Part shown: piece by piece, positions 28,007 to 46,780 of the stretch | Layout of the letters: the number at the start of each line of letters is the position of its first letter | Numbering within the stretch: position 1 is the stretch's first letter | Assembly: GCA_900540955.1 (NCBI GenBank) | Contig: UQIF01000001.1 | Coordinates: 105,439 to 169,438 of the forward strand | Origin: an uncultured Olsenella sp. | GTDB lineage: Bacteria; Actinomycetota; Coriobacteriia; Coriobacteriales; Atopobiaceae | DNA: 64,000 nucleotides | Reading direction: 5' to 3' | Notes under the pieces: model-generated | Told to the model about the DNA's origin: nothing | What the model saw: only the letters and a program-made list of their open reading frames with translations | The model's database searches: none | Position numbers and translations under genes: made by a program

Positions 28007-28116
28007 CCTGGCGTGAACAGCGTGAACAGGGGACGTACCCTGTTCACGCGTCCCCTGTTCACGTTCACGCGAAGAGGTGGCATCTTGCTCGCCGACTTGG
28101 CACAATAGACTGGCGT

Positions 28117-28158: not shown

Positions 28159-28188
28159 CCTCAGCTCAAATCACAGAAGGGCGTGTCC

Positions 28189-29208
28189 ATGGATTCCGTG
28201 GTCGACTACATAACCGAACAGCTCAGTGAGCTCACCTCCATTCCCAGCCCCACCGGCTTCACCTCTAGGGTGACCGCGTACGTCTCGAGGACGCTCGAGG
28301 GCATGGGCTTTGCGCCCGAGCTCTCCAACAAGGGCAACGTGCTCGTGGAACTCGGCGGCGAGGGCAGGCCGCTCGTGCTCGCCAGCCACGTCGACACGCT
28401 CGGCGCCATGGTCCGCTCCGTCAAGGACAACGGCCGCCTGCGTCCCACCACGCTCGGCGGCCACCAGTGGTCGACCGCCGACGGGGAGAACTGCACGGTG
28501 CACACGCGCGACGGCCGCGTCTACACGGGCGTCGTCTTGAACACCGAGCCCTCGATCCACGTCGCCGACGAGAAGGTCGAGCAGGTCGAGAAGAACATGG
28601 AGATCCTGCTCGACGAGAACGTCGACACAAAGAAGGGCGTGGCAGAGCTCGGCGTCCAGACGGGCGACATCATCGCCATGGACCCGCGCACAACCGTTAC
28701 CCCGAGCGGCTACATCAAGAGTCGCTTTCTGGACGACAAGCTTTCCGCCGCCATTCTTCTGGGCCTTGCGCGTGAGGTATCTGAGGGCAGGGTCTCGCTC
28801 GCCCGCAAGGTCTATCTTCTCTTCACCGTCTATGAGGAGGTCGGGCACGGCGGCGCCTTCGTGCCCGCGGACACGCTCGATATGCTGAGCGTGGACATGG
28901 GCTGCGTCGGCGACGACCTCGGCTGCACCGAGCGCATGGTCTCCATCTGCGCCAAGGACTCGGGCGGCCCGTACAACTACGACCTGGTGAGCGAGCTCGC
29001 CTCCATCGCCCGCGAGCTTGAGCTCGGCTACGCCATCGACGTGTACCCGCACTACAGCTCCGACGTCGAGGCGACACTGTGCGCCGGCTACGATATCCGC
29101 CACGGCCTCATCGGCCCGGGCGTTTATGCGAGCCACAACTACGAGCGCTCCCACGTGGATGGCGTTCGCAATACTTTCGAGCTTGTCCGCGCTTTCGTGG
29201 GCCGATAA
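28189..29208 (+). CDS. M42-family aminopeptidase (FrvX/glutamyl aminopeptidase-like)
   Basis: MDSVVDYITEQLSELTSIPSPTGF... with the M42 motif LASHVDTLGAMV. RBS GAAGGG. Confidence 0.8.
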   Translation: MDSVVDYITEQLSELTSIPSPTGFTSRVTAYVSRTLEGMGFAPELSNKGNVLVELGGEGRPLVLASHVDTLGAMVRSVKDNGRLRPTTLGGHQWSTADGENCTVHTRDGRVYTGVVLNTEPSIHVADEKVEQVEKNMEILLDENVDTKKGVAELGVQTGDIIAMDPRTTVTPSGYIKSRFLDDKLSAAILLGLAREVSEGRVSLARKVYLLFTVYEEVGHGGAFVPADTLDMLSVDMGCVGDDLGCTERMVSICAKDSGGPYNYDLVSELASIARELELGYAIDVYPHYSSDVEATLCAGYDIRHGLIGPGVYASHNYERSHVDGVRNTFELVRAFVGR

Positions 29209-29265: not shown

Positions 29266-30444
29266 ATGGCCGACGTGAGGGACTATCTCGAGATGCGCGC
29301 AGACGTCTTGCTGGGCGAGCGCTCCTTCAACGACGTCGACAACGTCATACTGGCGAGCCTGTCATACCTCGATCTGCACGGGATCGCGGACGTAAGCGGC
29401 GTCGCGAGGCTGAGCGTGCGCAAGGCCTGCGAGGCGTTCCTTAGGCGCGCGGCGGGGGAGGGCGTCGCGCCGTGGGTCCGCTCGCTCGCCTCCATCGACG
29501 ACCGCTTCGTTCGCGCGCTTGGCGACTCTGCGCGCTTCGGCTGCGCCATGGTGCGCGACTACGTCGACGTCACTGATGACGAGCGGACGCTCCAGTTCGC
29601 CGCCTTGACCGTCGACTTGCCCGACGGGTGCTCATACGTGTCGTTTCGCGGGACCGACAACAGCCTCGTCGGCTGGAAAGAGGACTTCATGCTGAGCTTC
29701 CGGGTGACGGGGGCCCAGCGCTCTGCCGCGGCCTATCTTGAGCGGGAGGCCGCGCGCGCCGTCGCGGAGGGTCGCCGGCTCTACGTCGGCGGCCATTCGA
29801 AGGGCGGCATTCTCGCGGCGTATGCGGCTACAGTGCTGCCGGAACGGCTTCGCCCCTGCTTGGTGCGCGTGTGGAGCAACGACGGCCCCGGTATGTGGGC
29901 AGGCGCCGCGCCCGCCCGCGCCGTCGAGGTGCTCGGGGGCGCGTTCACCCACATCATTCCCGCCTACGACATCGTCGGCATGCTCTTCGACGACGGGTCG
30001 AGGAAGCTCGTCGTGAGGAGCTCTGCCGACGGGGCGCTTCAGCACGACCCGATGACCTGGCAGGTCGGGCCTGGCGGGCTTGTGAAGGCGGAAGGGCTCG
30101 ACCCGGATTGCGTGCGCATGAACGCCGCGCTCGCCGGCTGGCTCGACAGCATGGACCCCGACGCGCGCGAGCGGTTCACGGAAGAGCTCTTCGATGTGCT
30201 CCAGGCGGGCGGCGCCTCGCGCCTGGACGAGATCTTGGCGAGTCCCCAGTCCATCCAGAAGGTGCTTTCGGCGCTCACTGCCGCCGACCAGCGCACGAAG
30301 GACCTGGTGCGCGAGCTTTTGGGCGCGACCATCACCGCCAACGTGGAGTCTGCCAAGGACGCCGTGGCCAACGCCCTTGCGAGGCCCGCCGGCTGGGGAC
30401 TTGGGGGCAACCGGCTTTGGCCTGGCCAGCAGACCGGTCAGTAA
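29266..30444 (+). CDS. DUF2974 / Mbeg1-like alpha/beta-hydrolase (lipase-like)
   Basis: 392 aa with lipase-type nucleophile elbow GGHSKGG and preceding FRGTDNSLVGWKEDF. Confidence 0.7.
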   Translation: MADVRDYLEMRADVLLGERSFNDVDNVILASLSYLDLHGIADVSGVARLSVRKACEAFLRRAAGEGVAPWVRSLASIDDRFVRALGDSARFGCAMVRDYVDVTDDERTLQFAALTVDLPDGCSYVSFRGTDNSLVGWKEDFMLSFRVTGAQRSAAAYLEREAARAVAEGRRLYVGGHSKGGILAAYAATVLPERLRPCLVRVWSNDGPGMWAGAAPARAVEVLGGAFTHIIPAYDIVGMLFDDGSRKLVVRSSADGALQHDPMTWQVGPGGLVKAEGLDPDCVRMNAALAGWLDSMDPDARERFTEELFDVLQAGGASRLDEILASPQSIQKVLSALTAADQRTKDLVRELLGATITANVESAKDAVANALARPAGWGLGGNRLWPGQQTGQ

Positions 30445-31399: not shown

Positions 31400-34300
31400 A
31401 TGGCCCTCCATATCGTGAAGACCGGTCGGGAAGACGTCGTCTCTCCCGCCGCCGTCGGCGCTCTGCGCCAAGCCTTGCGGCACGGTGGCCGCTCTGTGCT
31501 CCTGGCACCGTCGTTCGAGCGCGCCCTGGACGCCCAACGCGTGCTTGCCGGCATCGAGGGGCTCGGGCTTGGGGTCCAGACCACGACGCCGCTCGCCTGG
31601 GCCGGGGAGCGCTGGGGCGTCTGGGGCGACGGCCGGCGCATCGTGGACGGGCTTGCCCGTGAGGCGCTCTGCCTGCGCGTCGTCGCCCGCGCCGCGGCTC
31701 GGGAGGGCTCTCTTGTAAAGAACAACCCCGGTACGAGGTCTTTGCTGTCCGGGCTCGTCTCGCGCGGGCTGTCCTCGCTGCGCGGCGACGGCCGACCCGA
31801 GGGGCTGACGGACGCCGAGGTCGCGGTGGCCTTGCTTGCCCGAGACTACGACGCCGAGCTCGCGGGTCTTGGCCTCGTGGAGGCGTGCGACGTCATGGAG
31901 CTTCTTCCCGGGGTGCTCCCTCAGGGCGGCGGAGCCCAGATGGTGGCCGTCGGGCTTGAGGACGCTCCCGCCTGTCAGCTCCGGCTCCTTGCCCGCCTCT
32001 CGCTCGACCGAGAGGTCACGGTTGTCCTGCGCGCGCTCGACGCGCCGGCGTCGGAGCCGGGGCGCGAGGCCGTCCGCGAGCTGATCGACCTTGCCAAGAG
32101 CGAGGGGGCGCCCCTCGATGTGGCAGAGGAGCGGGGCTGCGAGAAGCCTGGCCGCCCTGCCGAGCTCTCCGCCCTCGCGTCGTCGCTCTTTGTCCGCACG
32201 GATAGCCCGCTCCCCGCGTCCGGCGCCGTGCGCGTCGTCCTGCCCGCGGGGCCCTCGGCGGAGCTCGCCGCGATCGCCGAGGAGGTCAGTGCCCTCGCGC
32301 AGGCCGGCTCGCGCTCCGTCACCGTGGCAGCGCCCGACGTCGCCTCCGTTTGGCGCGGGCTCGCGGGAAGGCTCGCGGCGCGGGGAATCTCGTCCCGCGC
32401 TCGCCTGCGCGTCCCCGTGCGATCGACCGAGTCGGGACGCGCCCTGCTCGAGCTTGTGGACGGCGTCTCGTCGCTGGCGGAGCTCGCCGCCGAGTGGCCC
32501 GCGCCTCGCCGGCTGCCCAACCGCGATGTTCGAGTCGAACTCCGCGACATGTCCTGGTGGCCCCCGATGGGGCTCTCCGATTTCCTCGCGTCGAGGATCT
32601 CGGGCGTCGACGCCGCCCGGGCCCGGGCCCTCGATGCCCAGTGGAGATCCAACCGACTGCTCACGCCCGCCGCGGTTCTGGAGCAGCTCCAGAACGAGCG
32701 CTCCACCTCCGCGGCGTGCGCCGCCGCCGTGCGCGAGCTTTTGCGCGGGCGGGTGGGCTCGTGCGCCTCGAAGCTCCTCGCCCCCATCGTGGAGGGCGGA
32801 AAGAAGGACGATTCCTCGCTCGAGGCCGTGGCCGTCCTCGGGCAGGCGCTCTCGGTCGGCATGTCGCTCAAGGAATGCGGCTACTCCGCCGAGGACGCCT
32901 GCGGAGACATCTCGGCCCTGCGTGAGCTTTGGTCCGCCGCGTCCGCCCTTCTTTCCAGCTCCAGCGTCTCTCTTCGCCCCGAGCGGGTCGTCGAGGGGTC
33001 CGCGTGCGTGGCCACGGTGCTTCCCGCCGCGTCTTTCGAGGCGGCCCCGCTCTCCTGCGACGCCATCGTGCTGTGCGGCCAGACTTCCGTGGAGTCCCCC
33101 GTGTCCGCCTCCGACGACGTGCTCCACGCGATGCTTTGCGCTTACGGCGTCGAGCGTCCGAGGTCCGCCATGGCGGCCGCCCGCGCGCGTCTCGACGCAG
33201 CCGTCCGCGCCGCCCGCCGGTCGGTGTCGTTCGAGCGTTGTCTCTTTTCCGCCGACTCGAAGGAGTGCTTCTGCGGCGTGATGATGTCCGAGGCGCTTGC
33301 CTGCTACGGCCTTTCGGCCTCCGCCCCCGCCGACAAGGTGTCGCGGGTGCTCGGCGAGAGATCCGTTCCTTTGCGCGGTGAGCTCCAGATCTCCGAGAAC
33401 GCCGCCGACGCGGGAGCCTCCCCGCGGACCGAGGGCGGGTGCCGGCCGTCGCCCGCGGGACGCATCGACACCGCCCTCGCCTCCTGCGTCATGCCCCCGC
33501 AGGAGGGGACGGCCTCCGGCCTGCCGCTTCTCTCGGCATCCCAGATCGAGACCTACCTGGAATGCCCCTACAAATGGTTCAGCCTCCGTCGCCTTCGCCT
33601 CCATGACGCGGACGCGGGCTTCGGGGGCGCGGAGGCGGGCACCTTCGCGCACCGCGTCCTCGAGGTGACCCACCGCAATCTCCTCGCATCGGCTCTGGCC
33701 AGGGCGGAGGGCTCCGACGCGCTCTTTCGCATCGAGGCGGAGGACCCCGAGGGAATGCAGTCCGAGGCCTACGTCGCCGAGGCCGAGCGGCTCGTCGCTC
33801 TGGCGCAGGCGGACCCGAGCACAAGGGTCGAGGGCTCGAGGGTCGACGCCTCCACCCTGGACGCCGCCCGCGCGCTCCTTTCCAAGGAGTTCGACGGGCA
33901 TCTATCCCATCAATACCAGCTCAAGCGCGGCAAACGGCCGATGCCGCAGGCGCTTGTCCCGCACACGTCTGCCGAGGAAGGCAGCCTCGTGTCCTTGAGG
34001 CGCGACCTCGAGAGCCTTCTGGGCTACGAGTCCGAGATCCTCGCTGGATTCGAGCCGCGCTGCTTCGAGTGGAGCTTCGGCAAGCGGGGCGCCTACGTCG
34101 AGTACGCCGGCGTGCAGCTCACGGGCACGGTTGACCGCATCGACGTCGACGCCCACGGGCAGGCGGCCGTCATCGACTACAAGCATAAGGGCGCCCGCGG
34201 GTTCGCGTCGGAGTACGACGCCTTCGGCGAGGGCGGGGCGGCAGCGGCCATGGGCGAGGGCGGGCTCATCCTCCCCAGGCGCGTGCAGTCGCTCATCTAC

Positions 34301-34654
34301 GGCCAGGTGGTCAGGCGCGCCTTCCCGCAGCTCAAGGTGGTCTCGGCGGTTTATCTGTGCACAAAGGCGCCCCATGAGCTCGCAGGCGCCGTGGACGCCG
34401 AGGCTGCGGACAACGTCTTCGGCATGCGACCGCTCTCTTCGAGGAGGCTGCCGAAGGTCGAGGTCCCGCGCTCGGTGCGCTTCGGCGACTCCGCCGGCTC
34501 GCTCGGCATCGAGTCTTTACTCGATGCCTGCGAGGAGGCTATCGCCGCCAAGCTCGAGCGCATGATGTCCGGCGACATCGAGGCCGACCCCGTCGACGCC
34601 CACGCCTGCGACTACTGCCCGGTGCTCAACTGCGACAAGAGGTGCTCCAAGTGA
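31400..34654 (+). CDS. addB: AddB/RexB-type helicase-nuclease subunit (degenerate helicase N-terminus, C-terminal PD-(D/E)xK nuclease with Fe-S Cys cluster)
   Basis: 1084 aa. Nuclease motif VIDYKHKG. Terminal CDYCPVLNCDKRC cluster with an upstream Cys. Translationally coupled (GTGA) to the UvrD-like addA. Confidence 0.7.
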   Translation: MALHIVKTGREDVVSPAAVGALRQALRHGGRSVLLAPSFERALDAQRVLAGIEGLGLGVQTTTPLAWAGERWGVWGDGRRIVDGLAREALCLRVVARAAAREGSLVKNNPGTRSLLSGLVSRGLSSLRGDGRPEGLTDAEVAVALLARDYDAELAGLGLVEACDVMELLPGVLPQGGGAQMVAVGLEDAPACQLRLLARLSLDREVTVVLRALDAPASEPGREAVRELIDLAKSEGAPLDVAEERGCEKPGRPAELSALASSLFVRTDSPLPASGAVRVVLPAGPSAELAAIAEEVSALAQAGSRSVTVAAPDVASVWRGLAGRLAARGISSRARLRVPVRSTESGRALLELVDGVSSLAELAAEWPAPRRLPNRDVRVELRDMSWWPPMGLSDFLASRISGVDAARARALDAQWRSNRLLTPAAVLEQLQNERSTSAACAAAVRELLRGRVGSCASKLLAPIVEGGKKDDSSLEAVAVLGQALSVGMSLKECGYSAEDACGDISALRELWSAASALLSSSSVSLRPERVVEGSACVATVLPAASFEAAPLSCDAIVLCGQTSVESPVSASDDVLHAMLCAYGVERPRSAMAAARARLDAAVRAARRSVSFERCLFSADSKECFCGVMMSEALACYGLSASAPADKVSRVLGERSVPLRGELQISENAADAGASPRTEGGCRPSPAGRIDTALASCVMPPQEGTASGLPLLSASQIETYLECPYKWFSLRRLRLHDADAGFGGAEAGTFAHRVLEVTHRNLLASALARAEGSDALFRIEAEDPEGMQSEAYVAEAERLVALAQADPSTRVEGSRVDASTLDAARALLSKEFDGHLSHQYQLKRGKRPMPQALVPHTSAEEGSLVSLRRDLESLLGYESEILAGFEPRCFEWSFGKRGAYVEYAGVQLTGTVDRIDVDAHGQAAVIDYKHKGARGFASEYDAFGEGGAAAAMGEGGLILPRRVQSLIYGQVVRRAFPQLKVVSAVYLCTKAPHELAGAVDAEAADNVFGMRPLSSRRLPKVEVPRSVRFGDSAGSLGIESLLDACEEAIAAKLERMMSGDIEADPVDAHACDYCPVLNCDKRCSK

Positions 34655-37600
34655 CGAATTCCGGCAATGCCCCGCTGGTCGACCTCTCCGGCTTGAACGC
34701 TGGCCAGAGAAAGATCGCCGAGACCCTCGACGCGCCCCTCTTCGTTGAGGCGGGCGCGGGTTCCGGCAAGACCTTTACCCTTACCCAACGCGTCGCGTGG
34801 GCGCTGTGCCCCGGGTCGGGGGAGGGCGGAAAGCCCTTCCTCGACGACCTCGGCCAGGTCCTCGTCATCACCTTCACCGAGGCGGCCGCGCGAGAGATCC
34901 GCGAGCGCGTGCGCTCTACGCTGCGACGCGTCGGGCTCCAGGAGGCGTCGCTTGCCGTCGACGACGCGTGGATCTCGACGATTCACGGCATGTGCTCGAA
35001 GATCCTGCATCGACACGCGCTCGACCTGGGGCTCGATCCCGAGTTCAGGGTGGTGTCAGGCTCAGAGCAGAACCGGATGTACCTTCAGGCGATGGACGCC
35101 GTCATGCGGGCGGCCGCCGGAGACGCGGGCCTCACCGCCGCGATCGCCGCCGCCGGCGTGGGCTCCTGGTCTGCTGAGAGCGGTTTTTCCGGCGCCATGG
35201 GCATCGTTGACGGGGTCATCGCCGCCGCGCGCGCGGTTCCCGGCGGCCTCGCCGCGATCGCCGCCGCCCGCCCGGCGGCGGGAGCCGACGTCGATCACTT
35301 GATGCGCGAGCTTCTTATGCGCTGCGAGGAGCTGGGCGCCGAGAGACTCACCGCCGCCGCGGCGGCGAAGGTCGGCCCTTCGCTCGAGGCCCTCCGGGCA
35401 TTCGACGCGCTCGCGCCCGGCGCAAAGACCCCTGATGCCGCGGCCGAGGCGCTCAAGGCCGTGTCGATGCCTCGGTCGAGCAAGGCCATTGCCGACAAGC
35501 TCGCCGACGCCAAGTCGGCGCTCGCCGCAGCACGGGCCGAGGTGCTCTTCCTTTCCGGCGCCGAGCACGCGGGCGCCTACCTCGAGCTCGCCCGCCGCGT
35601 CGACGCGGAATACACGCGCGTGAAGCGCGAGGCCTCTGCCTGCGACAACGATGACCTCGTCGCCCTCGCCTACGCCGCGGTACGCGATGTCGACGCCGTG
35701 AGGGCGGACTACGCGGGCAGATTCCGCCTCGTCATGGTCGACGAGTTCCAGGACACCGACGAGACCCAGCTTGCCTTGATCGGGCTTCTTGCCGGCGAGG
35801 GCGCGAGGCATCTGTGCACCGTCGGCGATGCCCAGCAGTCCATCTACCGCTTCCGCGGGGCAGACGTCGGGGTCTTCTACCGCCGCGGGGAGGATGTCCT
35901 CGACGAGGGCAGGGTCCGGCTCGACACGAACTACCGCAGCCATGGCGATATCCTCAAGTTCGTCGAGCGCGTGAGCCGCGGCAACGCCGGGCCCGGGCTG
36001 GGCCTCGGCGGCGGGTGCTCGGGGACCATGGAGGCGGGCGCGTTCATGCACCTCGACGATTGCCCCACGCGTAAGGACGCCTACCGGGCGCGCAGCCTGC
36101 CCCGCGTCGACGTCGAGGTGGTCTGCGGCAAGGGGGCCTCCGGCTACGCGACAAAGCAGCAGGTTGCCACCATGGCCTCGCAGATAGCCGACGCGCTCGC
36201 CCGATACCGCGACGCCGGGGAGCGCCCCGGGGACATGGCGCTTCTGCTCGGCGTCACCTCGAACGCCGGGCTCTACATAGACGCCCTGCGCGCCCGAGGC
36301 CTCGAGTGCGTGGTCACGGGCGGCTCGACCTTCACGAAGGCTCCCGAGGTCAAGGTCATGTGCGCGCTGCTGCACACGCTCGCTAACCCCGCCGACACCC
36401 AGTCCGGGCTCTTCCCACTGCTCGCGAGCGAGATGTTCGCGCTCGACGCCGACGACTTCTGCGAGCTCGGCACGCGCCTGCAGGAGAAGCTCCCCGCGCC
36501 CACAAAGAGGCCCATCGACCAGGGCCTGGCCGCGTTCGAGTTCCTTCCCGGGCACGTTCCCTCCGCCAGGCTCTCCCGTGCCCGCGAGGTCGTCGCCCGC
36601 GCGCTCGTGGACGTGGCGCGCGAGCCCGTGGCAGACGTCTGCTACCGGGTCGCGCGCGACTCCGGCTGGCTCGCGCGCCTCGAGGCCGGCGGGACCCAGG
36701 GGCAGGCCAAGGCCGCCAACGTGCTCGCCTCTATACGCTATATCCGGGACCTCACGCGGTCGCTCGGCCTCGGGCCGGCGCGCGCCGCCGCGGAGTTCGA
36801 CCTGTGGCTCGCCGCCTCGAAGATCGCCCCGGCGTCGCTTGCCGGCGGCGAGTCCGGCGCCGGCACGGTCCGCATCATGACCATCCACGCGTCCAAGGGC
36901 CTCGAGTTTCCCGTCACGGCCGTCGCGGAGTGCTGGAACGACCCGAGGGACTCCCGCGCGCTGGCCGTCGCCCCGGGCAACCCCGCCGCCCTCGTCGTCA
37001 AGCCTGCCGGCCTCGACGACGCCGACGCGAGGGCCCTCGCGTCGGCGCTCAAGGGCATCGACGCCGACGACGCCCTCGATGACCTCGAGTCCGGCCGTGC
37101 GCAGCCGCTCTCGTCACTTTTCGTCGCGCTCGGCGAGAAGGACGCCCGAGAGGCGGCGCAGGAGAAGGCGCGCCTGCTCTACGTCGCGATGACGCGCGCC
37201 CGCGAGGCCCTCATCCTCGGCGTGAGCGCCGCGGAGGGTTCTTCCGGCGTCTCCTCGACGATGGCCGCCAACGCGCTCTTCGCGCTCTTCGGCTCGGCCG
37301 CGGCCCCCTCCTGCGGGCTCTCCTGCATCGACTACGGCGGCGAGGCGCCGGCGCGCGTCCGCTGCGTCCGCGTCCAGATCGAGGGGAAGGGGGAGGAGAG
37401 GGCCTGCCTCGCCGACTCCGCCGGCTCCCTCGAGGGGTTCGACGGGCCGATCCCGCTCGACCCCTCCGCCATCGTCGGCGCCGCCGATTCCGGCGGGAAG
37501 GGCGAGGCCGCGGGCGGTGAGTTCGAGCTCTTCGAGGTCGAGCCCGACGCGGACGCGACCTTCGGGTTGTGGCGCGCCCGGGAGGGCGTCTACAGCTACA

Positions 37601-38217
37601 GCTCCGTCCACGCCTCCATGGCTCAAGACGCCGGCGAGCCCGCGTGCGCGCCCACTCGCGCCGAGCGCGACGCCGCCGACGAGGGGGCGCCTACGGGCGG
37701 CGACGCCGACCGGGCGACGAACCTCGGCTCGGCCTTCCATGAGCTCGCTCAGGCCATGGCCGAGTCGGGTAGGGAGCCGAGCGAGGGGCAGGTCGCGGCC
37801 ATGGCCCGCCGCTGGAACCTCTCCGCGAGGGCGCGGACGCGGCTTGCGGCGGCGATCGGCCGCTGGGCGCGCTCGTCCATCCGCGCGGAGGCCCTGTCGC
37901 ACGGCCAGGTGCGCCCCGAGGTGTCCTTCTTCGTCGCGCGGCCAAGCGAGCACGGCGATCACCTCGAGGGCGCCATAGACCTTCTGTGCACCGACGAGGG
38001 GAGCCGCGAGGCGCTCGTCGTCGACTACAAGACCGGAGACGCCGGCCTCACCGCCGACGAGGTCCGCGCCCGCCACGCGATGCAGGCCGAATTCTACGCC
38101 GGAGTCCTCTTAGACCAGGGCTGGGAGCAGGTGGAGTGCGCCTTCGTCTGCGTCGAGCGGGAAGACGACCAGTGCCCCGGCGAGCCCCTCGTCGCCCGCT
38201 ACTCCTTTTCCCGGTAA
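34651..38217 (+). CDS. addA: AddA/RexA-type UvrD-family helicase-nuclease
   Basis: Walker A GAGSGKTFTL. UvrD motifs TFTEAAAREI, TIHGMC, VMVDEFQDTD, VGDAQQSIYRFRGAD and IMTIHASKGLEF. C-terminal RecB nuclease LVVDYKTGD. Start GTG 34651 (alternative 34642). Confidence 0.85.
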   Translation: MTNSGNAPLVDLSGLNAGQRKIAETLDAPLFVEAGAGSGKTFTLTQRVAWALCPGSGEGGKPFLDDLGQVLVITFTEAAAREIRERVRSTLRRVGLQEASLAVDDAWISTIHGMCSKILHRHALDLGLDPEFRVVSGSEQNRMYLQAMDAVMRAAAGDAGLTAAIAAAGVGSWSAESGFSGAMGIVDGVIAAARAVPGGLAAIAAARPAAGADVDHLMRELLMRCEELGAERLTAAAAAKVGPSLEALRAFDALAPGAKTPDAAAEALKAVSMPRSSKAIADKLADAKSALAAARAEVLFLSGAEHAGAYLELARRVDAEYTRVKREASACDNDDLVALAYAAVRDVDAVRADYAGRFRLVMVDEFQDTDETQLALIGLLAGEGARHLCTVGDAQQSIYRFRGADVGVFYRRGEDVLDEGRVRLDTNYRSHGDILKFVERVSRGNAGPGLGLGGGCSGTMEAGAFMHLDDCPTRKDAYRARSLPRVDVEVVCGKGASGYATKQQVATMASQIADALARYRDAGERPGDMALLLGVTSNAGLYIDALRARGLECVVTGGSTFTKAPEVKVMCALLHTLANPADTQSGLFPLLASEMFALDADDFCELGTRLQEKLPAPTKRPIDQGLAAFEFLPGHVPSARLSRAREVVARALVDVAREPVADVCYRVARDSGWLARLEAGGTQGQAKAANVLASIRYIRDLTRSLGLGPARAAAEFDLWLAASKIAPASLAGGESGAGTVRIMTIHASKGLEFPVTAVAECWNDPRDSRALAVAPGNPAALVVKPAGLDDADARALASALKGIDADDALDDLESGRAQPLSSLFVALGEKDAREAAQEKARLLYVAMTRAREALILGVSAAEGSSGVSSTMAANALFALFGSAAAPSCGLSCIDYGGEAPARVRCVRVQIEGKGEERACLADSAGSLEGFDGPIPLDPSAIVGAADSGGKGEAAGGEFELFEVEPDADATFGLWRAREGVYSYSSVHASMAQDAGEPACAPTRAERDAADEGAPTGGDADRATNLGSAFHELAQAMAESGREPSEGQVAAMARRWNLSARARTRLAAAIGRWARSSIRAEALSHGQVRPEVSFFVARPSEHGDHLEGAIDLLCTDEGSREALVVDYKTGDAGLTADEVRARHAMQAEFYAGVLLDQGWEQVECAFVCVEREDDQCPGEPLVARYSFSR

Positions 38218-38362: not shown

Positions 38363-41300
38363 ATGGCTTTCGTTCACCTGCACAACCACTCGGACTTCTC
38401 GATCCTCGACGCCGCCACGCGCATCCCCGACATGGTCAAGCGCGCCGTCGACCTGCAGATGCCGGCCCTTGCGCTCACCGACCACGGCTACATGTTCGGC
38501 GTGCCGGACTTCGACCTTGAGTGCCGCAAGTACAACGACGCGCAACAGGATATGAAGCAGTGGAAGCACGATGTGGAGTGCTTCAAGAAGGGCTGGGAGC
38601 TCGAGGAGCCCGAGGCCGACGCCGCCGACGCCGCCTTGCACGACCGCGTCCACGCCCAGTGGGCCTCCGACGTCGAGGCCTGGGAGTCGTCGGGACACGA
38701 CCTCTCGGCCGTCGAGGCCAATCGGCCGGAGCTCCTCATCAAGCCGATCTTCGGCTGCGAGGCGTACTTCATCACCGACGACTGCATCGAGAAGGGCACC
38801 AAGCAGCACCGCTATCACCTGCTCCTGCTTGCCAAGAACGAGACCGGCTACGTCAACCTCATGAAGATGATGAGCGAGGCGGGCTCCGGCGACATGTTCT
38901 ACTACTACCCGCGCACCACGCTCGACATGCTGCGGCGCTACCACGAGGGCATCATCTGCTGCTCCGCCTGCGTCTCGGGCATCATCCCGCGCATGTACTT
39001 CTCGGGCCAGCCCGACAAGGCCAAGGAGTGGGCGCTTACCTACAAGGAGATCTTCGGCGAGGATTTCTACCTCGAGGTTCAGGACCACGGCCTGGAGGAC
39101 CCCTCCTGGGGCGGCTTCAACGACCGCACGCTGTCCGAGCAGATCGTCCGCCTCGGCCGCGAGCTCGGCATCAAGGTCATCGCCACGAACGACAACCACT
39201 ACCTCACGCGCGAGGACGCCCCCACGCAGGACATCCTCTCGTGCATCGGCACGGCCTCCAAGGTTGACGACGTGAACCGCAAGCGCATGACGGGCACCGA
39301 GTTCTACATCAAGACCGAGCAGGAGATGCGCGAGCTCTTCTCGTGGGCTCCCGAGGTCGTCGACAACACGCTCGAGGTCGCTGCAAAGTGCGACTACGAG
39401 CTCGACTGGACGCACATGTACCTGCCCAAGTTCCCTGGCCTGCGCGAGGGCGAGACCTCCGAGCAGCGTTTTCGCGAGGAGTGCGAGAAGGGCCTGGCCA
39501 TCCGCTACGGCGAGGACTGGAGAAACGTCGAGATCGGCGGTTGGAACGTCCTCGACCGCCTTAACCACGAGTACAACATCATCTGCACCAAGGGCTTCGC
39601 CGACTACTTCCTCATCGTCCAGGAGTACGTCCAGTGGGCCAAGCATAACGGCATCGGCGTGGGCCCCGGCCGCGGCTCGGCCGCCGGCGCCCTTGTGGCC
39701 TACGCCATGGACATCACCACGTTCGACCCGCTCTCCAACGGCCTGATGTTCGAGAGGTTCCTTTCGCCCCAGCGCTCCGAGATGCCCGATATCGATATGG
39801 ACTTCGACGACGAGCGGCGCCTGGAGGTCGTGCAGCACGTGCGCGAGCTCTACGGCCCCGAGCGCGTCTGCCACGTCATCACCTACTCGACCATCAAGGC
39901 CAAGCAGGCCATCAACGACGCCTGCCGCGTCCTCGGCTACCCCGTCTGGCAGGGCCAGAAGCTCTCGAAGATGATCTCGGGCGACCCCAAGGCCAAGCTC
40001 AAGTTCGTCTTGAGCAAGACCGAGGGCAAGGAGGACATGTACTCCCCGGACTTCGAGGAGGCCTACAAGAAGGATGAGGACGCCCGCCGCATCATCGACT
40101 CGGCGCTCTCCATCGAGGGCCTGCACCGAGGCGAGGGCGTCCACGCCTGCGCCGTCCTCATCGCGCCTACGCCCGTCAACGACCACGTTCCGACCAAGGT
40201 CGACACCAAGGGCGGCGTCGAGATCACGCAGTACGAGGGACACTCGGTCGCCGACATGGGCCTGCTCAAGATGGACTTCCTGGGCCTGCGCACCTTGACC
40301 GTCATCTCCAAGGCGCTCGCCAACATACGGGCGACCTACCCCAACCCGGAAGACATCGAGAAGATGCCCGACGTCGTCAAGGCGACGATCAAGCCGGGCG
40401 CGACCTGCGTGGACATCAACGTCGACAAGATTCCCTTCGACGACCCCAAGATCTACGAGCTCATGGGCCGCGGCCACACCGCGGGCGTCTTCCAGATCGA
40501 GTCCGCCGGCATGACGGCCACCATCAAGGGCATGCAGCCCAAGGAGTACCGCCAGGTCGTCGCACTTATCGCCCTGTATCGACCGGGCCCGCTGGGCGCC
40601 GGCATGGTCACGAGCTACATCAACCGCATGAACGGCAAGGAGCCCGTCGCCTTCTACGACGACCGCCTCTCCGACATCCTGGACGAGACCTACGGCACCA
40701 TGGTCTACCAGGAGCAGGTCATGCAGATCAGCATGAAGATGTCGAACTTCTCGCCGGGCGAGTCCGACTCGCGCATCAGAAAACCGGTGGCAAAAAAGAA
40801 GATCAAGATGCTGACCGACCAGATCTTCCACTGGGAGGGCAACGGCGCCGACGAGACCATCTACGACCACTGGATCAACGGCGCCGTCGAGAACGGCTAC
40901 AAAAAAGAGGTCGCTCAGCGCATCTGGGACGACGTTCTCGAGTTCGCGTCCTACGCCTTCAACAAGTCGCACTCCGCCGGCTACGCCATCCTCGTCATGC
41001 AGACCGCGTGGCTCAAGGCCTACTTCCCCAAGGAGTACATGGCCTCGGTCCTCACGTCCTATATGGGAAAGACCGAGAAGATCGTCCACTACGTAACCGC
41101 GTACCGCCGCGAGGGCGTCGCCATCCTGCCCCCGGACATCAACGAGAGCGGCCGCGACTTCACGGCCACCCCCGACGGCGTCCGCTTCGGCTTCGCCGGC
41201 ATCCGCGGCGTGGGCGAGGCCGTGGGCGAGGCCATCATGGCCGAGCGCGACCGGGCCGGAGCCTTCTCGGACATCTTCGACTTCGTGAACCGCATGGACT

Positions 41301-42265
41301 CCGGCTCCGCCAACCGCCGCGTGGTCGAGGCCCTGATCTGCTCCGGCGCCTTCGACTCCACCGGCTACACCCGCATGCAGCTCATGCGCCTCGTCGACAA
41401 GAACAACCCGGACAACATCATCGACGCCGCCACCCGAAAGCAGAAGATCCGCGCCACGGGTCAGGTCTCGATGTTCGACATGTTCGCCGGCGTCGAGGGC
41501 GCCGGGTTCGAGGAGAGCAACCCCGAGCCCGACGGCGTCGAGTGGGACCGCTCGGTCAAGCTCGGGCGTGAGCACGAGGTCCTTGGCCTCTACGTCTCGG
41601 ACCACCCGCTGCGCCCCTACGCCTACGCGCTCGCGAAGGCCCGCGACTACAGCCTGTCCGACATCGAGGTCTCGCAGGAGGTCACCGACTCGGCCGGCGG
41701 CGTCCATGAGCAGTTCAAGGTTCCCGAGGGCAAGGTCCTGCGCTTTGCCGGCATGGTCAGCTCGCTTCAGAAGAAGACCACCAAGAACGGCGACCCCATG
41801 GCCATCGTCACCCTCGAGGACATGGAAGGCGAGGTCACGCTCGTCATCTTCCCGAAGCTCTTCAAGAAGTGCGCCGCGACGCTCGCGGGCGAGGTTGACC
41901 CCGATACCGGCGAGGCCTCAGGCGACGTCTTTGTCAAGGTGTCGGGCAAGCTCGAGCGCAGCGACCGCGGAAACCAGGTCATCTGCATGGAGGTCGAGCC
42001 GCTTGTCTTGAACGACCGCACGAATCGTCCCAAGGTGCTCGAGATCAACATGCCCGCGAGCAGCCTCACCCGCTCTCGCATGGACGACCTCAGCCGTATC
42101 CTGGGGGCCTATCCTGGGCTCGACCACGTCGAGGTCCGCGTCGAGTCCGTCTCGGGCGACATTATGCGCATGGAGCTGCCCTGCACGGTCGACGCCCGCA
42201 ACATGGTCCTTCTCGCCGAGGTGACCGATGCCATAGGCAGGTCGGGCAAGGTCCTCGTCGCATAA
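38363..42265 (+). CDS. dnaE: DNA polymerase III alpha subunit
   Basis: MAFVHLHNHSDFSILDAA PHP domain, polymerase core (GRGSAAGALVAYAMDIT), OB fold. Contains a ~75-aa insertion between the first PHP motifs. Confidence 0.95.
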   Translation: MAFVHLHNHSDFSILDAATRIPDMVKRAVDLQMPALALTDHGYMFGVPDFDLECRKYNDAQQDMKQWKHDVECFKKGWELEEPEADAADAALHDRVHAQWASDVEAWESSGHDLSAVEANRPELLIKPIFGCEAYFITDDCIEKGTKQHRYHLLLLAKNETGYVNLMKMMSEAGSGDMFYYYPRTTLDMLRRYHEGIICCSACVSGIIPRMYFSGQPDKAKEWALTYKEIFGEDFYLEVQDHGLEDPSWGGFNDRTLSEQIVRLGRELGIKVIATNDNHYLTREDAPTQDILSCIGTASKVDDVNRKRMTGTEFYIKTEQEMRELFSWAPEVVDNTLEVAAKCDYELDWTHMYLPKFPGLREGETSEQRFREECEKGLAIRYGEDWRNVEIGGWNVLDRLNHEYNIICTKGFADYFLIVQEYVQWAKHNGIGVGPGRGSAAGALVAYAMDITTFDPLSNGLMFERFLSPQRSEMPDIDMDFDDERRLEVVQHVRELYGPERVCHVITYSTIKAKQAINDACRVLGYPVWQGQKLSKMISGDPKAKLKFVLSKTEGKEDMYSPDFEEAYKKDEDARRIIDSALSIEGLHRGEGVHACAVLIAPTPVNDHVPTKVDTKGGVEITQYEGHSVADMGLLKMDFLGLRTLTVISKALANIRATYPNPEDIEKMPDVVKATIKPGATCVDINVDKIPFDDPKIYELMGRGHTAGVFQIESAGMTATIKGMQPKEYRQVVALIALYRPGPLGAGMVTSYINRMNGKEPVAFYDDRLSDILDETYGTMVYQEQVMQISMKMSNFSPGESDSRIRKPVAKKKIKMLTDQIFHWEGNGADETIYDHWINGAVENGYKKEVAQRIWDDVLEFASYAFNKSHSAGYAILVMQTAWLKAYFPKEYMASVLTSYMGKTEKIVHYVTAYRREGVAILPPDINESGRDFTATPDGVRFGFAGIRGVGEAVGEAIMAERDRAGAFSDIFDFVNRMDSGSANRRVVEALICSGAFDSTGYTRMQLMRLVDKNNPDNIIDAATRKQKIRATGQVSMFDMFAGVEGAGFEESNPEPDGVEWDRSVKLGREHEVLGLYVSDHPLRPYAYALAKARDYSLSDIEVSQEVTDSAGGVHEQFKVPEGKVLRFAGMVSSLQKKTTKNGDPMAIVTLEDMEGEVTLVIFPKLFKKCAATLAGEVDPDTGEASGDVFVKVSGKLERSDRGNQVICMEVEPLVLNDRTNRPKVLEINMPASSLTRSRMDDLSRILGAYPGLDHVEVRVESVSGDIMRMELPCTVDARNMVLLAEVTDAIGRSGKVLVA

Positions 42266-42288
42266 CCGTTTTTCTGGAGGTAACTACT

Positions 42289-44076
42289 TTGAAGATCGCC
42301 ATCGCACAGGTCCCTTCCGCCAACGGCGACCTCGGCTGTGCGGCCGAGCGCATCAAGGCGTATTGCTCTCGCGCGGCCGAGGGCGGGGCTGAGCTGTGCG
42401 TGTTCCCCGCGACCGTCATCGCGCCGGCGGTCCCCGTGGCGATGCCGGACCGCGAGGGGCTTCTATTTGACATGGCCCGGCTCTGCTCGGCACTCGCCGG
42501 CGAGCTCGCGTGCCCGGCGATCGTCCCGGTCTCGCTGCCGGGCTCCGACGACCCGGTGCTCGAGGCGGTTCAGGTGGGTCCTGACGGCGTTGTGCCGCTG
42601 CGCCTTCTCGGCGCGCTTTCACAGGCGTCGGCGGACGACCCGGGCGACGAGGCCTGCGGGCTGTCCCTGCCGCAGGTCGAGGTGGGCGACCTCACGCTCG
42701 GCATCGCGTTCACCTACGAGGAGCTCGAGGAGTACGTCGACTACGACTACCGTGTGGACGCCGTGCTGTTCCTCTCGACCTACGGCTTTGCCACCGACGA
42801 CGCCGCCAGCGCGCTCGGCGCCTCGATTCTGGAGTCGCGTTTCCGCGCCGACGCCGACGCCATGGGGGCGTGGATTGTGGGCGTCGGCTCCGTTGGCTGC
42901 TCTGACCTCGAGGTCTTCTGTGGCGCGAGCTTCGCCGTGGCCCCTTGGGGCGAGCTTGCCTGCCAGGCGCCGTCGTTCGAGGAGGCGCTCGTCTTCGCCG
43001 ACCTCCGCAAAGGTGAGGAGGGCCCCCTCAAGGAGGCGGTCACCCCCCAGGTGTTCGACCCCTCGATCATGGCCTGGGAGGCAGTCGCGGAGGGCACCCG
43101 CGGCATCATCGCGTCGCTTGGGAAGACCTCAGCGCGCCTGGTCGTCGACGGGGGCATGCCCTCTATGCTTGCCTGCGCCGTCGCGACCGACGCCCTCGGC
43201 CCGGTGAACGTCAGTCCCACGGTCCTTCTTTGGGGCGACGGGCGCGATGAGCTTTCCCGCGCGCTTGTCCGCAACCTCAGGCTCGAGGCGCGCGAGCTTG
43301 CCGCCGCAGGTCTCTTTGAGGATGGCGACGAGGAGCTCGCGCGCGACGTGGCCTGGGCGCGCGTTTGCGCCGAGGCCAGGCGCGAGGGGTCGGTCATTGT
43401 GGGCAGCTCCGACAAGACCTCGCTGGCCCTCGGCTCGGCGCCCGCCCGCGACCTCGGCTGCGTGCTGCCTTTCGGCGACCTGTACCGCTCCGACGTCCTT
43501 GCGCTCGCGCGGCTGCGCAACACCGTCTCTCCCGTCATCCCCGCGGCGGCACGCTCCTCCTGGCAGCTCGAGGAAGTCGCCTCCCTTGCGGGCACGGGGT
43601 CTGCCGACAGGAGGCTCGAGCAGGTCGACTTCGTCATCTCGAGCTTCGTCGAGTGGGAGCTCCCGCTTTCGGACATCGCCTCGGACTGCGAGAACGAGGG
43701 GCTTGCCCGCGCCGTCGTCGCGCTCGTGCGCTCTTCGCTGTCCTCGCTGCCGGGACGGCTTTTGGCCCCCACGCTCTCGTCAAAGACGCTCGACGAGGCC
43801 CGCGGCCCCTTCGGGTTTTCATGGCGAGACCGCGTTCGGGCCAAGGGCGAAAGAATCGACCGCGACGCGATGGCCGCCGAGATAGCGCAGGCGCTCGGCG
43901 GCTCGGGCGAGAAGGACTCGGAGGCCAGCTCGCCGCAGGAGGCGCTCGACCTCCTGGGCATGCTCAGCGGCTCCGACGAGCTGGGGGAGGCTCCCTCTTC
44001 CGGAGAGCGTCACGACCATGGCGGGCATTCCGGCCCTCAGGGCTTTTTCTGGGGAGGCCCGTTCTCCGAGAACTAA
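42289..44076 (+). CDS. NadE-like protein (CN-hydrolase + NAD-synthetase fold) with degenerate catalytic motifs
   Basis: 595 aa, TTG start with RBS GGAGG. Synthetase-domain block GSSDKTSLALGS...PFGDLYRSDVLALARL matches the NadE 'GTGNKSELALGY...PIADLYKTQVRELA' region. The PP-loop reads DGGMPS, not SGGxDS. CN-hydrolase Glu reads FPA (not FPE) and the Cys position reads AFTYEE. Confidence 0.65.
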   Translation: MKIAIAQVPSANGDLGCAAERIKAYCSRAAEGGAELCVFPATVIAPAVPVAMPDREGLLFDMARLCSALAGELACPAIVPVSLPGSDDPVLEAVQVGPDGVVPLRLLGALSQASADDPGDEACGLSLPQVEVGDLTLGIAFTYEELEEYVDYDYRVDAVLFLSTYGFATDDAASALGASILESRFRADADAMGAWIVGVGSVGCSDLEVFCGASFAVAPWGELACQAPSFEEALVFADLRKGEEGPLKEAVTPQVFDPSIMAWEAVAEGTRGIIASLGKTSARLVVDGGMPSMLACAVATDALGPVNVSPTVLLWGDGRDELSRALVRNLRLEARELAAAGLFEDGDEELARDVAWARVCAEARREGSVIVGSSDKTSLALGSAPARDLGCVLPFGDLYRSDVLALARLRNTVSPVIPAAARSSWQLEEVASLAGTGSADRRLEQVDFVISSFVEWELPLSDIASDCENEGLARAVVALVRSSLSSLPGRLLAPTLSSKTLDEARGPFGFSWRDRVRAKGERIDRDAMAAEIAQALGGSGEKDSEASSPQEALDLLGMLSGSDELGEAPSSGERHDHGGHSGPQGFFWGGPFSEN

Positions 44077-44151
44077 TGCTCTCGTCTCCGTGTGCCTATG
44101 CTAGGATAGAACGAGCGTTCTTATGGCATACGTCGCGGAAGGGGGCACACC

Positions 44152-44658
44152 ATGGTCATCCTGGGCATCGACCCGGGCCTCGCCCACACGGGCTGGGGCG
44201 TTGTCGAGACGCGCGGGCCCGTGTGCCGTGCCCGCGCCTACGGCAGCGTGGAGACTCGTTCACACGAGTCGATCGATTCCCGCCTGGGAAGGATCTACGA
44301 CGAGGTCAAGGCCGTGATCGAACGTTACGGGCCGACCGAGCTCGCCATCGAGAACGTGTATTTCGGCGAGAACGTCAAGTCCGCCGTGGCCACCGCCCAG
44401 GCGCGCGGGGCGGCCATAGTCGCGTGCGCGAAGGCGGGGCTTTCGGTGGGGGAGTACACCCCCATGCAGATCAAGCAGGCGGTGGTCGGCACGGGGGCCG
44501 CCGATAAGCACCAGGTCATGTACATGGTGCGCAACGTGCTCGCGCTCGACCACGAGCCCCGGCCCGACCACGCGGCCGACGCCCTGGCCGCCGCGGTCTG
44601 CCACGCAAACCTCACCCGCACAAAGAACCTCGGCAAGGCAAGGAGTTTCCAGCAATGA
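44152..44658 (+). CDS. ruvC: crossover junction endodeoxyribonuclease RuvC
   Basis: MVILGIDPGLAHTGWGVVE... RNase-H-like resolvase. Confidence 0.9.
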   Translation: MVILGIDPGLAHTGWGVVETRGPVCRARAYGSVETRSHESIDSRLGRIYDEVKAVIERYGPTELAIENVYFGENVKSAVATAQARGAAIVACAKAGLSVGEYTPMQIKQAVVGTGAADKHQVMYMVRNVLALDHEPRPDHAADALAAAVCHANLTRTKNLGKARSFQQ

Positions 44659-45299
44659 TCGTCCAGCTCACAGGCACGCTCGTTGAGGTCCTGCCCTCGC
44701 GCGTCGTCCTAGACGTCGGCGGCGTGGGCTACGAGCTCGGCGTCTCCTCCACCACTGCCGCCTCGCTTCCCCATGCGGGCGAGGCGGGCGTCACGGTGCT
44801 CACGCGCATGATTGTCCGCGAGGACGCGATGGAGCTCTACGGCTTCGCCACGCGCGAGGAGCGTGCGCTGTTCGACCAGCTTCGCGCCATCTCCGGGGTG
44901 GGTCCCAAGCTCGCCCTCGCCGTTCTCTCCACCTTCACCGCGTCGCAGCTCGCGACGGTCGTCGCCACCGAGGACGCGGCCCGGATGGCCCAGGTCCCCG
45001 GCGTCGGAAAGAAGAAAGCCTCGCGCCTGCTCGTCGAGCTCTCCGACGTGTTCTCAAAGAACGCGGAGCTGAGGGGGCTTGTGGGGCTTGGCGCCACAGG
45101 CCCTGGCCAGATCCCGCTCGAAGGCGCGGCCCAGGCGGCGTCCTCCGGCGTGGACGCCGAGGCGACCGAGGCCCTTCTGTCCATGGGGTTCACTCCCCAA
45201 GAGGCGCAGCTCGCCCTGGAGGGGCGCGAGGAGTCCGGCGCGCTCACCATCGAGGCCGCGCTCTCCTATGCGCTTAGGCGCCTGGGGAGTGGTCGATGA
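44655..45299 (+). CDS. ruvA: Holliday junction DNA helicase RuvA
   Basis: [12 protein letters not shown]... OB fold + HhH ([13 protein letters not shown]) + C-terminal domain III. Confidence 0.9.
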
Positions 45300-46354
45300 T
45301 GTGGGAGGCTTCCGACAAGGACCTCTTCGCCACGAACGCTCCCGGCGTCTCGGGTGCGCCGCGGGCGGTCACGGGAGAACTCACCGGCGACGACCTCGAC
45401 CAGGACCGGAGCCTGAGGCCAAAGACCCTCGAGGAGTACGTCGGGCAGGCGCGCGTCTGCTCGAACCTCAAGGTGCTCATCGAGGCCGCGAAGTCCCGCA
45501 ACGAGCCGCTCGACCACGTGATATTCTCGGGCCCCCCAGGCCTGGGAAAGACGACGCTGGCAGGCATCGTCGCCAACGAGATGGGGGCCAAGCTGCACAC
45601 GACCTCCGGCCCCGCCATCGAGCGCGCGGGCGACCTCGCGGCCATCCTCACCAACCTCGAGGAGGGCGATGTCCTCTTCGTCGACGAGATCCACCGTCTC
45701 AACCATCAGATCGAGGAAATTCTCTATCCGGCGATGGAGGACTTCTTCCTCGATATCGTCATCGGCAAGGGCCCGGCGGCCCGCTCCATTAGAATCGACG
45801 TGCCTCGTTTCACGCTGGTGGGCGCGACTACCCGTACCGGGCTTCTTACCGGTCCTTTGCGCGATCGCTTCGGCATCAGCTATCGCCTCGATTACTACAC
45901 GCCCCCCGAGCTCGCCGACATCGTCACGCGCTCCGCGAGTATCCTCGGCGTCCTGATCGATGCCCAGGGAGCGCTCGAGATCGCCTCCCGGTCGCGAGGA
46001 ACGCCTCGTCTGGCCAACCGCCTGCTCAAGCGCGTTCGTGACTATGCGTGCGTGAAGGCCTCCGGGGACATCACCTGGGAGGTTGCCGACGAGGCCCTCG
46101 AGTTCTTCCAGATCGATGCTATGGGACTCGACTGGATGGACGTGAAGATCCTCACGGCCCTGTGCAAGACGTTCCGAGGGCGTCCCGTCGGGCTGACCAC
46201 GGTGGCCTCCGCCGTGGGGGAGGACCCGAGCACGCTCGAGGACGTCTACGAGCCGTACCTTCTTCAGTGTGGGCTCATCGTGCGGACGCCTCAGGGCAGG
46301 CAGGCGACCCCCGCCGCCTTCGACCACCTCGGCGTCGAGGTCCCGACGCGGTAG
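45296..46354 (+). CDS. ruvB: Holliday junction DNA helicase RuvB
   Basis: Walker [12 protein letters not shown], Walker [11 protein letters not shown], winged helix. ATGA overlap with ruvA. Confidence 0.95.
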
Positions 46355-46411: not shown

Positions 46412-46780
46412 ATGCTTCAGCGTGACTACGTTCTTGAGCTCATCGGCCAGTTCACGGAGGTCGTCAAGCGTGCTCTCAAGCGCGCACTGACGGGGGATCT
46501 TGAGGGGTGCGAGGAGGTTGAGCGGCAGATCGGCGAGATTCTCGACCTCGACTACGGCACCGCGTTGTCGCTGGCTCCCGACTCGCTCGTCACGATGATG
46601 GTCATCTCCGGCATGGGCGATTCCGTCGCCTCCTACGTCTGCTTCGCGCTTGCGCGTCTGGCGGAGGTCTACGAGAAGATGGGCAACGAGGACCTCTCGA
46701 TGCTTCGCGCGGCGCAGGCCAAGGCGGTCGCGGAGTCGTTCGGCTGCGACCCCGACGACGTTCCCGAGGAGCTCAAGTAG
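46412..46780 (+). CDS. hypothetical protein
   Basis: 122 aa following ruvB. No recognisable motif. Followed by an intrinsic terminator. Confidence 0.5.
   Translation: MLQRDYVLELIGQFTEVVKRALKRALTGDLEGCEEVERQIGEILDLDYGTALSLAPDSLVTMMVISGMGDSVASYVCFALARLAEVYEKMGNEDLSMLRAAQAKAVAESFGCDPDDVPEELK

Follow-up and report, generated by a model that had tools for sequence, protein, structure and literature searches.

A NadE-like pseudoenzyme with a conserved C-terminal peptide is encoded next to ruvCAB in Olsenella and other Coriobacteriales

The gene nadEL (for NadE-like) of an uncultured Olsenella sp. encodes a protein built like a glutamine-dependent NAD+ synthetase, in which the catalytic residues of both domains are substituted, as our data indicate. 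It occupies positions 42289-44076 of a 64,000-nucleotide stretch (NCBI GenBank assembly GCA_900540955.1, contig UQIF01000001.1, positions 105,439 to 169,438 of the forward strand), which we call the window; coordinates below count from its first letter, and features lie on the plus strand unless stated otherwise. We found that the nadEL proteins form a family of pseudoenzymes that derives from NadE and carries a new C-terminal module, and that the intact open reading frame (ORF) is under purifying selection and conserved across the Atopobiaceae and the Coriobacteriaceae. No published description of an inactive NadE paralog was found in our literature searches, and the published survey of the NAD synthetase (NADS) family (PMC3376133) is silent on inactive or paralogous forms.

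Loss of the catalytic motifs

The nadEL ORF codes for 595 amino acids plus a stop codon, contains no frameshift and starts with TTG. Its homologs open with MKIAIAQ and the TTG takes the position of their Met, so we consider this start to be correct. A Shine-Dalgarno sequence GGAGG, read directly from the DNA, is found at 42276-42280, 8 nt 5' of the TTG, and a gap of 23 nt separates the dnaE stop codon (42263-42265) from the nadEL start.

Four alignment methods were used to fix the register against canonical enzymes: phmmer against the Streptomyces avermitilis NadE structure (PDB 3N05), MAFFT with canonical enzymes, an alignment of 182 sequences, and a family profile against the Acinetobacter baumannii NadE (PDB 5KHA). 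The phmmer alignment pairs FPE with FPA and SGGIDS with DGGMPS, and MAFFT, run on 40 family members plus three canonical fused NadE (P0105-P0107), gives the identical pairing. The catalytic columns did not change when 139 more representatives were added to reach the 182 sequences. The family profile matches 5KHA over its full length (E = 6e-62), pairing 'LvfPaavLtg' with LIIFPELSVIGY, 'dgslasal' with 'SGGIDSAL' and 'adKTalAL' with 'GNKSELSV'.

In this register the nitrilase triad Glu-Lys-Cys is absent from the nadEL product, its positions being taken by A41 (42409-42411), L107 (42607-42609) and T142 (42712-42714). The S-G-G-x-D-S signature of the PP-loop is replaced by D287-G-G-M-P291-S292 (43147-43164), and GNKSE by SDKTS at residues 374-378. 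The other invariants of the canonical enzymes that are gone are PNY/VFDE, ENxQxRxRG, YGD..GG, PSAEL and LPPY. These losses are a property of the family rather than of a single sequence: among 179 representatives the Glu is kept in none, the Lys in one, the Cys in one and SGGxDS in none, and the motifs that contact ATP, Mg2+ and nicotinic acid adenine dinucleotide (NaAD), namely ENxQxRxRG, GNKSE, YGD..GG and PSAEL, are kept in less than 5% of the members. At the PP-loop position the family has a consensus of its own, [VL][VL]-D-G-[ST]-L-x-S. At about 15 columns, at least 85% of the family agree on a residue that the canonical enzymes lack; D157, D171, W195, W263, T377, P394, G396, S497 and W512 are among them.

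Over the 207 columns that are invariant in the three canonical enzymes, the mean retention is 30%. The motifs kept lie outside the active sites and comprise GG.D..VF.G.S, AP.FEE, DALGP..V and R.RN..SPVIP. The regions aligned to the canonical alpha18 helix and C-terminal loop are also retained; these two are the elements through which the glutaminase and synthetase parts of the fused enzymes contact each other (PMC3376133). Judging from the alignments, this retention would preserve the architecture of the protein and not its chemistry.

The profile libraries give a consistent picture. The glutaminase-like part (residues 1-250, 42289-43038) matches Pfam CN_hydrolase (PF00795) above the gathering threshold (40.3 vs 23.2 bits, 3e-10), with its best stretch at residues 186-242; with the triad absent, this match is best read as homology only. 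The synthetase-like part, an N-type ATP-pyrophosphatase domain that appears equally dead (residues 251-520, 43039-43848), stays below the threshold of Pfam NAD_synthase (11.3 vs 21 bits). For the NCBIfam NAD+ synthase equivalog NF010588 the score is 65.9 bits, far under its cut-off of 479, and for NF010587 it is 22.3 bits with a cut-off of 255.

An earlier sequence-only reading of this DNA had aligned the protein to NadE by eye and claimed that all three catalytic signatures were lost. The segments that it quoted are present in the nadEL product, i.e. VFPATVIAP at residues 38-46, GIAFTYEE at 138-145, DGGMPS at 287-292 and the synthetase-domain block GSSDKTSLALGS...PFGDLYRSDVLALARL at 371-408. 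Its register agrees with the catalytic columns of all four methods, and mapping the triad and PP-loop columns by alignment to characterised NadE, the check that it had proposed, shows every one of them substituted. The two-domain architecture that it had assigned is likewise borne out by the full-length profile match to 5KHA and by the structure model.

The AlphaFold2 model, computed with a family alignment of 98 sequences, has a mean predicted local distance difference test (pLDDT) score of 87.9 and a predicted template modelling score of 0.86. It is confident from residue 1 to about residue 540, with pLDDT above 90 across most of the synthetase-like domain and below 50 at residues 541-547 and 556-595. 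The top Foldseek match in the PDB is 3N05 (E = 8e-30, TM score 0.66-0.69), followed by 5KHA, 4F4H and 3ILV, then by the Mycobacterium tuberculosis and human NadE, and then by amidases of the nitrilase superfamily matching the N-terminal half.

Conservation and selection across the family

The nadEL family is widespread within one bacterial order. A scan for related loci with one genome per species found relatives in at least 184 species-level genomes, the named ones of which are Atopobiaceae or Coriobacteriaceae, and we fetched 80 of the loci. These come from Olsenella, Thermophilibacter, Paratractidigestivibacter, Olegusella, Kribbibacterium, Collinsella and other Atopobiaceae and Coriobacteriaceae. 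A database search gave 104 close to distant relatives with identities down to 24%, and an exhaustive profile search gave over 150 clusters at 50% identity with E < 1e-89. The closest related locus belongs to an uncultured Olsenella metagenome-assembled genome (MAG), with identities of 90% for the nadEL product and 99% for DnaE, and the ortholog in Olsenella uli DSM 7084 is 72% identical. Seven of the loci (L006, L007, L035, L041, L044, L049 and L055) come from MAGs titled Paludibacteraceae, Alloprevotella, Oscillibacter, Oscillospiraceae or Bacteroidaceae; these contigs carry Olsenella-like addAB-dnaE-nadEL-ruvCAB loci and are probably mis-binned.

Each of the 80 loci has a full-length copy of the gene, and start and C-terminal peptide are the same throughout. 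For nadEL the ratio of nonsynonymous to synonymous substitution rates (dN/dS) is 0.18 against the 90%-identical ortholog and 0.27 against that of O. uli, which resembles the values of addA and of a polysaccharide deacetylase gene and exceeds those of dnaE and ruvB. Both pseudo-domains are constrained, with dN/dS of 0.15-0.25 for the glutaminase-like and 0.17-0.28 for the synthetase-like one, and the linker is less so. The family diverges rapidly, with a median identity to the window protein across the 80 loci of 42%, compared with 80% for DnaE, 81% for RuvC and 84% for RuvB, which fits a relaxed, non-catalytic constraint. In the sequence-only reading, nadEL was proposed to be a full-length, frameshift-free gene whose non-catalytic product is maintained by selection, and not a pseudogene in decay; the reading named dN/dS and conservation among relatives as checks. 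The intact ORF, the two dN/dS values and the sharing of the substitutions by all 179 representatives speak for that proposal.

The names given to the family in databases are inconsistent, ranging from 'NAD+ synthase' over 'nitrilase-related carbon-nitrogen hydrolase' to 'hypothetical protein', and neither Pfam nor NCBIfam has a dedicated model for it. The Joint Genome Institute (JGI) labels P0046, P0069 and P0100 'NAD+ synthase (glutamine-hydrolysing)'. P0103, which we considered as a canonical relative, turned out to be a frameshifted fragment of the nadEL family itself.

A C-terminal extension with a near-invariant tip

The nadEL family continues beyond the point where the canonical enzymes stop. 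The latter end in ...PITNRY, whereas the family runs on for a median of about 100 residues past a W-x-D motif, the counterpart of the canonical C-terminus in the alignment; in the Olsenella protein of the window the extension is about 75 residues long. Across the family it consists of one or two short helices, including a motif like 'DLLGxLRDF', and then of a disordered stretch rich in G, P, R and H. In the nadEL product (residues 521-585, 43849-44043) two short helices are modelled at residues 525-537 and 549-560, the second carrying a 'DLLGxL' motif, and are followed by a disordered tether; dN/dS over this part is 0.19-1.0. The extension has no Pfam match.

The protein ends with the peptide GFFWGGPFSEN-COOH (44044-44073), and it is this ending that the family conserves. 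F at -4, S at -3 and N at -1 are found in 220 out of the 229 full-length members; the remaining nine end in near-variants (ISDN, YSEN, FFRN) or are truncated or frameshifted entries. W stands at -8 in 123 of the 220 members with F-S-x-N, a G at -6 and P, L, F or M at -5, giving the tail consensus W(-8)-x-G-[PLFM]-F(-4)-S(-3)-x-N(-1). The tail, only 10 codons long, shows no amino-acid change against L001 and L047, at synonymous divergences (dS) of 0.2 and 2.1. The F-S-x-N ending occurs on no other ORF of at least 100 amino acids among the 6588 ORFs of the window and the loci (1.46 Mb). A near-invariant short peptide on a flexible tether is the hallmark of a protein-docking motif, as is established for instance for the C-termini of SSB, which serve here only as an analogy. 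We also looked for Rosetta-stone fusions, and the family members of at least 690 amino acids differ only by low-complexity insertions, without extra domains.

A probable separate canonical NadE

If the nadEL product is inactive, NAD+ would have to be made by another enzyme. A tblastn search with the three canonical NadE sequences against the window and the 80 loci (1.46 Mb) gave nadEL as the sole match, and a canonical NadE profile run against a database of 5.8 billion proteins returned only Acidimicrobiia among the best 120 and so carries no information on Atopobiaceae. Published tables list two fused NADS (pegs 63 and 717) for Atopobium parvulum and one single-domain NADS each for Eggerthella, Slackia and Cryptobacterium (PMC3376133, supplementary file 4). 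For three Collinsella species a SEED-based table gives one fused NADS (NADS+GAT) together with nadA, nadB, nadC and nadD (PMC4403557, Table S6). The family member of Collinsella (P0104 cluster) is 24% identical to the window protein, is named 'hypothetical protein [Collinsella sp. AK_207A]' and scores at or below the Pfam thresholds. Because it is called hypothetical and barely matches Pfam, the NADS of the SEED table is probably a different, canonical gene. O. uli and Olsenella profusa are predicted to be niacin (B3) prototrophs (PMC6593275), and an active NadE is therefore required in them. A canonical NadE paralog is thus likely.

Gene neighbourhood

The neighbour that nadEL keeps is ruvCAB. 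In the window ruvC (44152-44658), ruvA (44655-45299) and ruvB (45296-46354) follow directly downstream, as identified by Pfam, and the order nadEL-ruvC-ruvA-ruvB is found in 75 of the 80 loci, with nadEL 53-215 nt 5' of ruvC. The ruv genes were not found at one locus, and four others have a gene between nadEL and ruvC, to which we return below. The Collinsella-type locus L081 also has ruvCAB after nadEL, and its upstream gene is that of a desulfoferrodoxin (194-556) and not dnaE.

The spacer between nadEL and ruvC contains a LexA (Cheo-type) SOS box, GAACGAGCGTTC, at 44109-44120, 31 nt 5' of the ruvC start. No second GAAC-N4-GTTC occurs in the 64-kb window, and nadEL itself carries none. A TAGAAC-N4-GTTCTA box is kept in the ruvC spacer in 78 out of 79 loci and in L081, so that ruvCAB has a separate, damage-inducible SOS promoter; from these sequences ruvCAB appears to be SOS-regulated throughout the Coriobacteriales. 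No convincing terminator was found between nadEL and ruvC, where a weak 5-bp stem lies inside the 3' end of the ORF and the candidates do not rise above shuffled controls, and read-through from nadEL into ruvCAB is therefore possible.

The upstream side is more variable. In the window dnaE, encoding the DNA polymerase III alpha subunit (38363-42265), is the immediate neighbour, and further upstream a PD-(D/E)XK nuclease protein (31400-34654) and a UvrD-type helicase-nuclease (34642-38217) form an AddAB/AdnAB-like pair, all assigned by Pfam. The distance from dnaE to nadEL ranges from 19 to 7882 nt across the loci and is 0.5-8 kb in most relatives, and a desulfoferrodoxin gene, which the lineage of the window lacks, commonly lies between the two in Olsenella and Thermophilibacter. 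The tight coupling to dnaE is hence lineage-specific. The sequence-only reading had pointed to a strong ribosome binding site (RBS) and to an operon position after dnaE; the RBS stands as GGAGG, while the adjacency holds only for this lineage, the conserved neighbour being ruvCAB on the downstream side. In none of the 80 loci does nadEL adjoin NAD genes. NAPRT is not near nadEL in the window, where the upstream genes include lysA, dapA and dapB. A role in anti-phage defence was considered and rejected, given no PADLOC match and the housekeeping context.

Several further observations were made around the gene. The intervening desulfoferrodoxin is superoxide reductase-like and about 128-151 amino acids long (e.g. 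9443-9898 in L010), and in about 25 loci the dnaE-nadEL gap measures 560-870 nt. The dS of dnaE is 0.12, compared with 0.14-0.34 for its neighbours, against L001, and 0.31, compared with 0.67-0.79, against O. uli; a value 2-3 times lower than that of the neighbours suggests strong codon-usage constraint or recent gene exchange. An ORF of 122 amino acids without Pfam match (46412-46780) follows directly 3' of ruvB, with its position kept in about 35 of the 80 loci, a place that we take to be the usual one for yajC in Actinobacteria. Upstream of the addAB-like genes lie three consecutive minus-strand ORFs of 331, 453 and 327 amino acids without Pfam matches, adjoined by an Mbeg1-like protein (PF11187, 1e-58), the region covering 25870-29154 (minus strand) and 29266-30444.

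Possible roles of the nadEL product

As a whole, the best explanation, and one we hold to be reasonably probable, is that the nadEL product is a catalytically dead descendant of a short type-F NadE that now serves as a scaffold or adaptor presenting a docking peptide. The two-domain NadE fold would have been kept while the nitrilase triad, the PP-loop and the motifs binding ATP and NaAD eroded, and a disordered C-terminal tether tipped by W-x-G-P-F-S-E-N-COOH would have been gained. The protein would no longer produce NAD, whose synthesis is probably carried out by a separate canonical NadE, and would work through protein-protein contacts, its folded and probably oligomeric body serving as scaffold or adaptor and its flexible tail docking onto a partner protein much as the tip of SSB does. 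A partner in DNA replication or recombination is our favoured, if weakly supported, guess, because nadEL lies nearly always directly 5' of the LexA-controlled ruvCAB and often near dnaE and addAB. We speculate, while holding it doubtful, that the dead NadE could be a lineage-specific accessory of recombination or replication in Coriobacteriales, with a tail that would form a novel docking motif bound by RuvABC, DnaE, the sliding clamp or a hub of that kind.

Several points weigh against a dead scaffold with a docking tail. The roughly 15 family-specific conserved residues could, from their conservation, form a new ligand or catalytic site. The tail docked nowhere in the monomer AlphaFold model and matched no known motif, and the oligomeric state is assumed by analogy with canonical NadE. 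The likely presence of a canonical NadE is drawn from published tables of relatives and not from this genome. As to the partner, ruvCAB carries its own LexA-box promoter in the spacer, and an unrelated insert of 2.1 kb separates nadEL from ruvC in four loci (L046, L056, L060 and L077). The persistent linkage to ruvCAB could reflect either function or inherited gene order, and may be mere inheritance of gene order within one bacterial order. The insert itself encodes a protein of 659 amino acids with an N-terminal membrane anchor (12033-14012 in L056), and the LexA box remains beside ruvC.

An alternative hypothesis, which we judge unlikely, is that the protein is a regulatory subunit or metabolite sensor that forms a hetero-oligomer with canonical NadE, or binds NaAD, NAD or glutamine, and thereby tunes NAD synthesis. 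The retained fold and interdomain contact elements would suit such a role, as would the two fused NADS genes of A. parvulum, and pairs of an active enzyme with a pseudoenzyme paralog are common in general. On the other side, canonical ligand binding is unlikely because the ATP, Mg2+ and NaAD motifs are all replaced, the 80 loci offer no neighbours from NAD metabolism, and nothing known of NadE biology corresponds to the invariant C-terminal docking peptide. Quite unlikely, in our estimate, is a neofunctionalised enzyme that uses new residues on the old scaffold for a different reaction. The family-conserved columns absent from canonical enzymes, several of them polar or aromatic (D157, D171, W195, W263, T377, S497 and W512), and the purifying selection on both domains would be expected of it. 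Yet no recognisable constellation of nucleophile, base and oxyanion hole has taken the place of the triad, the glycine-rich, phosphate-binding turn of the PP-loop is degraded to D-G-[ST]-L-x-S, and a median identity of 42% where neighbouring enzymes have about 80% is typical of relaxed, non-catalytic constraint.

It is highly improbable that nadEL still encodes the NAD+ synthetase of the organism, with the losses being artefactual or tolerated. The JGI names for some members and the predicted B3 prototrophy of O. uli, by which some NadE must work, could be cited for it, but the same register comes from four independent methods, the score is far under the NCBIfam cut-off, and the Glu, Lys, Cys and PP-loop are essential in the characterised enzymes of the nitrilase and PP-loop families. 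We give practically no credence to the idea that nadEL is a pseudogene in decay or an ORF wrongly annotated in high-GC sequence. Spurious long ORFs are indeed common in high-GC DNA, but the conservation of the full-length gene with its start and C-terminal peptide and its dN/dS of 0.18-0.27 exclude such an origin, and the confident AlphaFold model and strong RBS also speak against it.

The dead-scaffold explanation has practical consequences for annotation. Some pipelines label the nadEL product as NAD+ synthase, SEED-based tables can show a second NADS, as in A. parvulum, and such labels may inflate the predicted capacity for NAD biosynthesis. Recognising the inactivity avoids over-calling this pathway in Coriobacteriales such as Olsenella and Collinsella, which are abundant in gut, mouth and rumen. 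The protein combines two fully eroded active sites with the gain of a strongly conserved C-terminal peptide, which offers a concrete handle toward a new function. If the partner is indeed RuvABC or the replisome machinery, the fold of a metabolic enzyme would have been co-opted for genome maintenance.

Comparison with known systems

The nearest relatives are the short fused type F NadE (EC 6.3.5.1; NF010588/PRK13981; 5KHA, 4F4H and 3N05), which have the same two-domain fold and homology over the full length, the family profile matching these three structures with E-values from 6e-62 to 8e-51. Both groups share GGxD..VFxGxS, APxFEE, DALGP..V and R.RN..SPVIP. In contrast to these enzymes, the nadEL product lacks the triad, SGGxDS, GNKSE, YGD, PSAEL and ENxQxRxRG, and adds a C-terminal extension of about 75-100 amino acids with a conserved terminal peptide. 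The long fused NadE of M. tuberculosis and eukaryotes (3DLA and 6OFB) share the superfamily and the domain order (Foldseek E of about 1e-17 to 1e-18), but the profile covers only their N-terminal 143 residues, with an E-value of 3e-9. The family thus descends from the short type-F branch, given the profile E-values of 6e-62 for the short and 3e-9 for the M. tuberculosis type. The nadEL product is clearly derived from NadE but should not be filed as an NAD+ synthetase, because it lacks the triad, the PP-loop and the substrate motifs and scores below the curated NAD+ synthase cut-offs.

Two other systems offer parallels. Ctu2/Ncs2, of the Ctu1-Ctu2 pair for tRNA thiolation, has an ATP-pyrophosphatase fold without its former PP-loop signature and persists as a non-catalytic protein. 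It differs from the nadEL product in being eukaryotic and single-domain, with a known function and a known active partner, and in having neither a nitrilase domain nor a docking peptide. SSB consists of a folded oligomeric core, a disordered linker rich in G and P, and a near-invariant C-terminal docking peptide with P-F. The likeness is an analogy of mechanism only, and would lie in the conserved tip on a disordered linker. The tip of SSB is acidic and ends in Phe-COOH (DDDIPF), whereas the nadEL tail ends in F-S-x-N-COOH with a Trp upstream; the nadEL product has no OB fold, and DNA binding is not part of the likeness.

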